Below, piece by piece: positions 14,050 to 14,139 of a DNA stretch of 64,000 bases. The position numbers were made by a program, and so were the translations under genes. This stretch comes from an uncultured Clostridia bacterium. GTDB taxonomy: Bacteria > Bacillota > Clostridia > TANB77 > CAG-508. Each line of letters opens with the position of its first letter. The first letter of the stretch is position 1. A model generated the notes under the pieces. That model searched no databases and was not told where the DNA came from. It saw nothing but the letters and a program-made list of their open reading frames with translations. The stretch spans positions 6,511 to 70,510 of the forward strand of contig CANRES010000001.1 in assembly GCA_947629625.1 (NCBI GenBank), read 5' to 3'.

Positions 14050-14139
14050 AAAAGAAATATATTAAATTTACGCAGCGACGCGTAGCATGGGAGCGAAAGC
14101 GACCAACAAGGAGCAAGTAAAATTAAATATATTTCTTTT
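14050..14139 (+). repeat. Copy 1 of a structured element: a 49-nt GC-rich core embedded in an AT-rich imperfect palindrome
   Basis: The core at 14069..14117 (tacgcagcgacgcgtagcatgggagcgaaagcgaccaacaaggagcaag) stands out against the AT-rich background and is 44/49 identical to the reverse complement of 32161..32209. The flanks aaagaaatatattaaattta and taaaattaaatatatttcttt are inverted repeats. Confidence 0.5.

Follow-up and report, generated by a model that had tools for sequence, protein, structure and literature searches.

Among the palindromic repeats that lie dispersed between bacterial genes, the Correia elements (NEMIS/CREE) of Neisseria are a family of miniature inverted-repeat transposable elements (MITEs), i.e. 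palindromes of 100-160 bp with conserved ends and a duplicated TA. A canonical MITE conserves its ends and leaves its centre free to drift. Here, we describe two GC-rich hairpins in a stretch of 64,000 nucleotides from an uncultured Clostridia bacterium (contig CANRES010000001.1; hereafter the window), copy 1 at 14050-14139 on the plus strand, upstream of mtgA, and copy 2 at 32137-32231 on the minus strand, upstream of an M19 dipeptidase gene. Our data suggest, with a probability that we put at roughly 0.6, that both are short-form members of a MITE-like foldback repeat family with a selectively conserved central module, i.e. of a family of hairpin-shaped, apparently mobile DNA repeats.

The family resembles the Correia elements in being built of imperfect palindromes with many intergenic copies, in the terminal inverted repeats of its full-length members and the target duplications of some of these, in forming long hairpins when single-stranded, and in the presence of long and short forms differing by an internal segment of ~50 bp. 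In the Correia elements, conservation is at the ends and TA is duplicated, whereas in the present family it is at the centre, with arms that vary from one subfamily to another, and a 9-bp duplication is found on full-length forms only; there is no sequence similarity. ERIC/IRU, BOX and RUP of enterobacteria and pneumococci, often co-transcribed with their neighbours and of no known dedicated function, are likewise intergenic and non-coding, being imperfect palindromes that come in modular long and short variants, but they occur in other taxa and show no sequence similarity, and none among them is known for an asymmetric GC-rich core common to backbones with different arms.

Dispersed intergenic hairpins with co-evolving stems, a conserved GTAG-containing motif, an orientation bias and a basic unit lacking an obvious target duplication are features shared with REP/REPIN sequences, which RAYT transposases mobilise. 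Unlike a REPIN, composed of two inverted copies of one REP, the elements described here carry two mutually unrelated conserved strands, some of their full-length forms have target duplications, and a RAYT gene was not found in the fetched loci, the screen not being exhaustive. Integron attC sites would be similar in that a folded single strand specifies the function, its bases being partly unpaired or extrahelical, its terminal structure differing in length and its stems differing in sequence. In attC, however, it is the base of the stem that is conserved (RYYYAAC/GTTRRRY), and the sites stand in ordered cassette arrays next to an integrase, whereas here it is the centre; R''/R' boxes were not found in the copies, the stem bases of which vary (TTTAC/GT.AAA, ATATC/GATAT and others) and which are single, scattered and present in both orientations. 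TwoAYGGAY RNA (RF01731) is the sole bacterial Rfam family that spans either foldback hairpin of the window over its full length. With 16.7 and 21.2 bits (E-values 8.3 and 0.4) these matches are far below the gathering score of 43 and are probably generic hairpin matches.

The window copies and a family restricted to gut Clostridia

A degenerate pattern of the 36-nt core matches the window exactly twice, at 14077-14112 (+) and 32166-32201 (-), with 0/100 in shuffles, and the covariance model of the family finds exactly copies 1 and 2, scoring 90.9 and 87.5 bits. The 49-nt cores differ at five positions (44/49 identical, read from the alignment), and both rank among the 40-nt islands that reach at least 55% G+C, of which the window, itself at 23-28% G+C, has nine in all, confirming the original prediction of two inverted copies with G+C above background. 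The arms of copy 1 are unlike those of copy 2, complementarity being kept within each copy, and the predicted fold energies are -27.0 kcal/mol (z -5.4) and -30.8 kcal/mol (z -7.3), in line with the proposal that each core sits in an AT-rich inverted repeat of its own that forms a long stem; the complementary strands of both copies fold nearly as well. Gene calls agree with the placement in divergent intergenic regions: copy 1 is flanked by a RecN-like gene (12255-13916, -) and by mtgA (14281-14979, +; Pfam Transgly), and for copy 2 the flanking genes are that of the M19 dipeptidase (31175-32101, -) and rpmB, encoding L28 (32355-32555, +).

Contigs identical to the window occur in ENA metagenome assemblies, and its nearest proteins bear names such as 'MAG: ... 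[Clostridia bacterium]'. Scanning 185,579 species genomes (GTDB) with the 5' conserved strand GACGCGTAGCATGGNAGCG as query returned 69 loci, 64 of them in uncultured Clostridia metagenome-assembled genomes (MAGs) and five being chance matches in high-GC genomes. An earlier scan using a pattern across the apical loop had yielded zero matches because this loop is the variable part of the element. The family comprises ~70 copies of 100-240 bp in at least eight uncultured Clostridia MAGs with up to ~30 copies per MAG; the source MAGs are mostly rabbit-gut 'Lapin' bins, joined by E08_bin232, ABMPRH_40_1_1 and one further MAG. A genomic repeat, one of the options initially considered, therefore proved right, as ~70 copies are dispersed in related MAGs. 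The covariance model, built from 62 distinct copies, gave 75 matches in the fetched loci, including diverged copies missed by the pattern. All copies but one are located outside open reading frames (ORFs) of at least 90 amino acids, and the neighbouring genes are unrelated, among them the RecN-like gene, rpmB, pilin-like genes and others. Coding of a peptide by the element was ruled out, the frames being broken by stops, by apical hairpins of variable length and by the short form.

Rfam 15, searched at gathering and E-value thresholds with the short and the long form, contains no relevant family, in agreement with the initial impression that no riboswitch class can be recognised; TwoAYGGAY and RT-6 gave weak matches only, sub-threshold or spurious. 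The RT-6 matches beside both copies fall where the host recN and rpmB promoters have their -35/UP region. In reverse complement, this region is a 'tcaatactttt' box that is found upstream of copies 1 and 2, and since the same box is also present in L004, a locus lacking the element, these matches were rejected as spurious. A likeness by eye to a strand of 5S rRNA helix IV/loop E was likewise discarded, as the Rfam 5S model gives no match even at E <= 10. Plasmid and phage BLAST searches returned nothing relevant, IMG/VR scans nothing or one chance match in a high-GC contig, and a JGI metagenome scan two matches, both chance, in coding DNA. Literature searches for sequence strings gave primers and other unrelated sequences only, and a keyword search was empty. 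As judged from these sequence searches, the family is previously undescribed and restricted to a lineage of uncultured gut Clostridia.

Two loci, L019:3418-3496 and L029:1474-1552, have retained the 5' arm with the 5' conserved strand and nothing else of the element, and abut unrelated sequence. These truncated copies are probably scars of deletion or rearrangement; we ruled them out as autonomous elements, there being no 3' half and no transposase within the locus.

A conserved centre and covarying stems

The long form is the commonest one and carries an extra apical hairpin domain of 43-76 nt between the two conserved strands (Table 1). In the short form, represented by copies 1 and 2 of the window and, in the sister species, by L009 and L069, a GNRA-type tetraloop replaces this domain (GC-GAAA-GC in copy 1, GC-GGAA-GC in copy 2). 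The central module is asymmetric and GC-rich, with GAAGUGACGCGUAGCAUGGRAGCG as its 5' strand and CGACCAACAAGGARCRAG as its 3' strand, the two strands combining a few Watson-Crick pairs with apparent purine-rich internal loops.

The hairpin predicted for the window copies is strongly supported by covariation. In the model-guided alignment, 94.2% of the pair cells are standard compared to 77% after shuffling and 35-47% with the partners slid by 1-3 columns, and 38/51 pairs show changes on both sides, figures that lean toward the structure as this alignment was fitted to the model. RNAalifold, applied independently to a MAFFT alignment, finds compensatory changes in 25/35 pairs. Covariation includes the core: at the pair in columns 35-146, 42 copies have U-A and 18 have C-G, and the window copies differ likewise, C14076-G14113 of copy 1 corresponding to U-A in copy 2. 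In the next helix, one diverged copy has changed U-A to C-G and G-C to G-U. In a distant relative, L048:6924-7078, the putative tandem G.A step of the core is by reading replaced by Watson-Crick GUACC/GGUAC, which therefore supports the pairing register of the core. Counting copies across genomes and building a covariance model, both proposed as checks at the outset, accordingly uncovered a family with compensatory changes in stems and core alike. A small TACG...CGTA hairpin within the 5' strand was ruled out, since it shows no covariation.

Between subfamilies the arms are ~54% identical, whereas the 3' conserved strand, having played no role in ascertainment, is 89% identical, and the unpaired GC-rich strands retain ~90% identity. 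Stem mismatches are equally rare for both types in the modelled stems (G-U 41, A-C 37); by free folding the counts are 39 G-U versus 111 A-C.

Table 1. Coordinates and parts of the foldback elements and of nearby features; positions without a locus name refer to the window.
Feature	Position	Strand	Remarks
Copy 1, left (5') AT-rich arm AAAAGAAATATATTAAATTTAC	14050..14071	+	pairs with 14118-14139; corresponds to helix 1 in the R1 family model
Copy 1, short-form GC-rich core	14072..14117	+	5' conserved strand 14072-14095, 3' conserved strand 14099-14117
Copy 1, tetraloop GAAA	closing pair C14094-G14099	+	inside short-form core
Copy 1, core pairs, outer set	G14075-C14114, C14076-G14113, C14079-G14110, G14082-C14107, T14083-A14106	+	predicted from the family
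Copy 1, core pairs, inner set	T14088-A14105, G14089-C14104, G14090-C14103, G14093-C14100	+	predicted from the family
Copy 1, right (3') AT-rich arm TAAAATTAAATATATTTCTTTT	14118..14139	+	complement of 14050-14071
Copy 2, left (5') arm TTTTGTAGTAATAAATATCATTTAC	32207..32231	-	by eye ~75% identity with the arm of its long-form orthologue in the sister species (L080)
Copy 2, short-form GC-rich core with GGAA tetraloop	32161..32206	-	pattern, alignment and covariance model
Copy 2, right (3') arm AAAATTATATTTATTACTACAAAA	32137..32160	-	complementary to copy 2 left arm
Long form, part 1: basal AT-rich stem			about 24-30 bp
Long form, part 2: 5' conserved strand			GAAGUGACGCGUAGCAUGGRAGCGA
Long form, part 3: apical domain			43-76 nt; stem type AGAGG-CUGU/ACAG-U-CCUCU, variable hairpin on top
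Long form, part 4: 3' conserved strand			GAGACGACCAACAAGGARCRAG
Long form, part 5: basal stem			returning side
Candidate 8-bp direct repeat CTATATTA	14001..14008, partner 14158-14165	+	candidate target duplication; flanks 149-bp segment holding copy 1
Host promoter of RecN-like gene, TTGACA-17-TATAAT	13935..13963	-	12/12 consensus; outside the element
Family F2 members	L027:3484-3682, L063:3552-3737, L068:1267-1480, L048:2606-2760
Second, unrelated foldback repeat	37551..37731	+	identical 18-nt terminal inverted repeats AAAAATATTAGACTATTA; between convergent genes
Second foldback repeat, AT-rich arms and GC-rich core TCTGACATGCTAACGGGTATTCCCCGCCTCAAAGGGCTGTCAGA	core about 37621-37665		arms ~70 nt

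Ends, insertion sites and apparent turnover in place

In the Lapin-015 and Lapin-005 MAGs the palindrome is extended to 199-242 bp with the ends GTTACNNGATAATGG...CCATTATCNNGTAAC (GTTAC...GTAAC). Perfect 9-bp direct repeats lie directly outside two of the 11 full-length elements examined (AAAAAGATG in L021, AACTTTTTC in L027), which is far beyond chance given a match probability of ~0.3 per AT-rich position; four more (L012, L050, L058, L063) have near-perfect duplications, and five have none. In other MAGs, the identical core type (F1) is found on wholly different or copy-specific outer arms. Insertion sites vary among relatives: the recN-mtgA spacer is filled in the window and in the sister species and is empty in L004 and L005, whose MtgA proteins are 80% and 68% identical to that of the window, and the rpmB-M19 spacer, also filled in the window and in the sister species, is empty in L005. 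The canonical features of a MITE are only partly present, the family being multi-copy, intergenic and polymorphic between genomes, with terminal repeats on its full-length forms and a 9-bp duplication on some of these.

A related plan is seen in a second family, F2, which has the GTTAC...GTAAC ends and the outer ~35 nt in common with full-length F1 elements and a different GC-rich centre; its member in L027 has a perfect 9-bp target duplication. The F2 centre is predicted to be branched and reuses similar short motifs (GCGTAG, ATGGAGC, CGACCAAC, AATGGAGC and GCGACACCAA). GTAG is conserved in the F1, F2 and F3 cores, an extra hairpin occurs in the relatives F2 and L048, and the apical hairpins vary in length. 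The window itself contains another, unrelated foldback repeat at 37551-37731, the core of which recurs at about L019:5440 with the closing stem changed on both sides (CTTCCA/TGGAAG) and which matches nothing in Rfam beyond the weak TwoAYGGAY hit of 21.2 bits.

Both orthologous sites of the sister species differ in form from those of the window. L003 (= L030, MAG Lapin-016_bin31), with an MtgA protein 96% identical, has an element at the recN-mtgA site in the same orientation as the window, but in the long form, with a 46-nt extra hairpin at the position of the window's tetraloop. For the rpmB-M19 spacer we compared ten contigs encoding an identical L28 protein. The window type is short-form and of a single orientation in 8/8 contigs; in the sister species (L080) the spacer holds a long form with homologous arms (~75% by eye) and the core in the opposite orientation, 3/3 sister-type contigs sharing one orientation opposite to the window type. 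Within-species orientation polymorphism was seen neither among the eight window-type nor among the three sister-type contigs, consensus assemblies missing minor variants. As the sites differ in form and simply deleting part of the long form would not yield the short-form junction, it seems that copies undergo replacement or conversion in place.

These spacers differ in further respects. L003:2790-2880 (= L030) shows a tandem duplication, with a unit of ~50 bp (atatatttcctttactgataaatta.acaaatt...), that covers the 3' arm of the recN-mtgA copy together with its flank. At the strain level, L084 and L086 have an internal deletion in the rpmB-M19 spacer with most of the long-form core gone. In the same spacer of L085 (814-1029), 37 nt upstream of copy 2 are missing, including a promoter-like TTTACA-18-TATTAT box; L085 stems from the ENA assembly that also contains L001, a contig with 99% identity to the window. 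The perfect consensus sigma-70 promoter preceding the RecN-like gene is stronger than one would expect for a DNA-repair gene.

The core can also be reversed between paralogous loci. In Lapin-020, the flanks of L026 and L055 upstream of pilin-like paralogues are co-linear (80% identity) and the central 135 nt are 97.8% identical on the opposite strand, showing that the core has flipped between its arms. Five loci of Lapin-020_bin29 (L026, L032, L067, L072 and L055) carry the repeat ~110 nt upstream of pilin-like genes with an N-terminal methylation motif, embedded in a longer repeated block, which measures at least 400 bp and has a (GT)n microsatellite at its end; several contigs, e.g. L026 and L067, stop within the (GT)n tract, and the core is flipped in one paralogue. 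A different kind of inversion from that envisaged in the original prediction, namely the flip of the core within its own arms, is thus real at paralogous and sister-species loci. Inversion of the 18-kb segment between copies 1 and 2 is not supported: there is no sign of it because L005, lacking the repeats, has mtgA and the M19 gene in the same relative orientation. The genes between the copies are housekeeping ones (alr, P-type ATPase, amidase, clpX, tig, RNase E/G-family and Wzy-like genes).

Within this segment, the interval from tsaE to the M19 gene (17529-30852) spans ~13 kb and contains, besides these genes, tRNA-Gly (19358-19431). The same interval in the 68%-identity relative (L005:13329-16987) spans 3.6 kb with spoVS, ymdB and the RNase Y gene, a difference that is a core-gene rearrangement between relatives and unrelated to the repeats.

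A proposed mobile repeat weighed against its alternatives

We favour a model according to which the elements would be moved in trans by a transposase encoded elsewhere. The complementarity of the arms would be kept by a DNA-templated process, either arm-to-arm correction in the hairpin or cruciform or foldback copying, and the core would be, as our best guess, a recognition module that the mobilising enzyme, or else a host protein, reads when the single strand is folded. The window copies lie between divergent promoters, probably since insertions there are tolerated, and if they affect mtgA, the RecN-like gene, rpmB or the dipeptidase gene, they would do so incidentally, e.g. through read-through hairpins.

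Several observations weigh against a MITE-like repeat. The window copies and other 'basic unit' copies have no GTTAC ends and no convincing duplication; the candidate direct repeat around copy 1 (Table 1) is low-complexity and AT-rich and possibly of chance origin, and five of the 11 full-length elements lack a target duplication as well. Among the multi-copy ORFs of the fetched 8-kb loci there is no mobilising gene or transposase; only the three multi-copy ORFs obtained by clustering were scanned against Pfam, which gave no transposase, and those beside the Lapin-020 copies, tried as transposase candidates, turned out pilin-like (N_methyl motif). As a canonical MITE conserves its ends and lets its centre drift, the reversed pattern found here, with the centre conserved and the arms variable, is left unexplained by a plain MITE model; the invariance of the 5' strand is in part an artefact of the search pattern. 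Passive insertion of the DDE type moreover does not predict the strong orientation bias, and the higher stability of the plus strand as RNA, both described below, fits an RNA role as well as a DNA role.

The gene on the 5' side of the element is divergent in 49/63 copies, starting ~125 nt away, and a same-strand gene lies downstream in 20/60; in co-directional contexts, 29 copies are antisense and five sense. The purine-rich plus strand of the element lies on the locally C/T-rich strand in 55/70 copies. Transcription and replication are inseparable as causes of this bias because the local skew tracks gene direction. Both window copies follow the majority, with their 5' sides facing the starts of the RecN-like gene and rpmB, so that the consistent gene relationship is not with mtgA or the dipeptidase gene. 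As RNA, the plus strand is on average 3.9 kcal/mol more stable than its complement and the more stable one in 54/62 copies; as DNA, both strands fold about equally well.

The core might be a structured non-coding RNA, i.e. a small RNA or a protein-binding module, whose copies are spread by palindromic repeats or sit in them, and whose purine-rich internal loops (putative tandem G.A) and GNRA tetraloop would offer a protein/RNA-binding surface. We regard this as possible though doubtful. Structured RNAs in AT-rich genomes behave as the core does, being GC-rich and ~90% identical while the surrounding DNA is ~54% identical; covariation reaches into the core, the short-form apex is of the GNRA type both as GAAA and as GGAA, and the variable apical hairpins together with the extra hairpin of F2 and L048 recall the evolution of RNA families. 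The greater stability of the plus strand and the orientation bias, by which the strand matters, point the same way, as do the sub-threshold TwoAYGGAY matches of both window foldback families. Yet none of the Rfam matches reaches the threshold, neither a conserved promoter nor a terminator was found inside the consensus element, nor a promoter-like site in the core, and the purine-rich strand is antisense to the neighbours in about 75-80% of the copies, so that read-through transcripts would mostly carry the complement. The stems are near-perfect Watson-Crick with as many A-C as G-U mismatches, which is atypical for a selected RNA, perfect AT-rich duplexes of 25-45 bp would be expected to be substrates of RNase III, and the core changes its orientation in place. 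Taken together, we tentatively favour a constraint at the level of DNA or single-stranded DNA (ssDNA) over one at the level of RNA.

More far-reaching, and in our view unlikely, is that the GC-rich centres of F1, of F2/F3 and of the repeat at 37551-37731 (core about 37621-37665) represent a new class of mobile structured nucleic-acid modules with the repeats as vehicles for a function. Each centre would be a small functional RNA or ssDNA fold, e.g. a platform to which proteins bind, a ribozyme-like motif or a signal for recombination or priming, kept by purifying selection on interchangeable palindromic transposon backbones and subject to in-place flips and conversion between loci.

It is improbable, too, that the hairpin serves as an ssDNA recognition structure for an HUH/Y1-type enzyme by which it is moved, as in the REPIN/RAYT or IS200/IS605 systems, with the GC-rich core and its conserved GTAG as binding and cleavage module and the DDE-type ends belonging to a carrier MITE in which the hairpin is nested. 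This reading would account for the 'basic unit' copies having neither a terminal-repeat consensus nor a target duplication, for GTAG being conserved in the F1, F2 and F3 cores, and for stems that stay complementary with no RNA-type wobble bias; different hairpins within the same outer ~35 nt in F1 and F2 suggest nesting, and the bias of about 80:20 relative to gene and replication strand equals that reported for the lagging-strand ssDNA transposers IS608/ISDra2. It is opposed by the two conserved strands not being inverted copies of each other, and hence forming no REP doublet, by a Y1/RAYT gene not being seen in the fetched loci (a non-exhaustive screen), by the perfect 9-bp duplications on full-length forms, pointing to staggered-cut transposition, and by the opposite orientation of the two window copies on the same replichore-like skew.

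We consider it very improbable that the element is a programmed invertible DNA switch (inverton), in which the asymmetric core would flip between the arms as inverted repeats and change the expression of the adjacent gene. The inverted cores relative to the conserved, non-palindromic flanks of the pilin-like paralogues (L026/L055) and between the orthologous rpmB-M19 spacers of the sister species are as such a switch would predict, but the lack of orientation polymorphism in the eight window-type and three sister-type contigs is not; the invertible part contains no detected promoter, a recombinase gene was not recognised beside the copies examined, whose neighbours were not systematically screened, variable arms around a conserved core are the reverse of known invertons, and tens of copies adjoin unrelated housekeeping genes.

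Copy 2 ends 35 nt before the start codon of the dipeptidase gene and, given a promoter-like site just upstream of it at 32278-32249, may lie inside the 5' untranslated region of this gene; the strain variant L085, however, has lost the promoter-like box. A cis-regulatory leader or riboswitch for the downstream mtgA and M19 dipeptidase genes, which the original prediction had considered and which the co-orientation of both window copies with the downstream gene and this placement of copy 2 might suggest, is nevertheless close to refuted and essentially excluded, since only about one third of the members have a same-strand downstream gene, the neighbours have no function in common, mtgA and M19 persist in relatives that lack the element, the core is turned round before the same dipeptidase gene in the sister species, and both an Rfam family match and a recognisable expression platform are missing.

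For annotation, reading the hairpins as members of a dispersed foldback repeat family removes a tempting false positive, as a GC-rich covarying hairpin upstream of cell-wall and peptidase genes looks riboswitch-like and yet is a dispersed repeat. In very AT-rich uncultured gut Clostridia, this family inverts the usual logic of MITEs, its arms being variable and copy-specific and its strongly conserved, asymmetric centre being common to backbones with different ends. It offers a compact natural system for studying how long DNA palindromes stay complementary, what selects the centre and whether the expression of neighbouring genes is rewired. If the core is a true functional RNA or ssDNA signal, it would represent a new mobile structured module.

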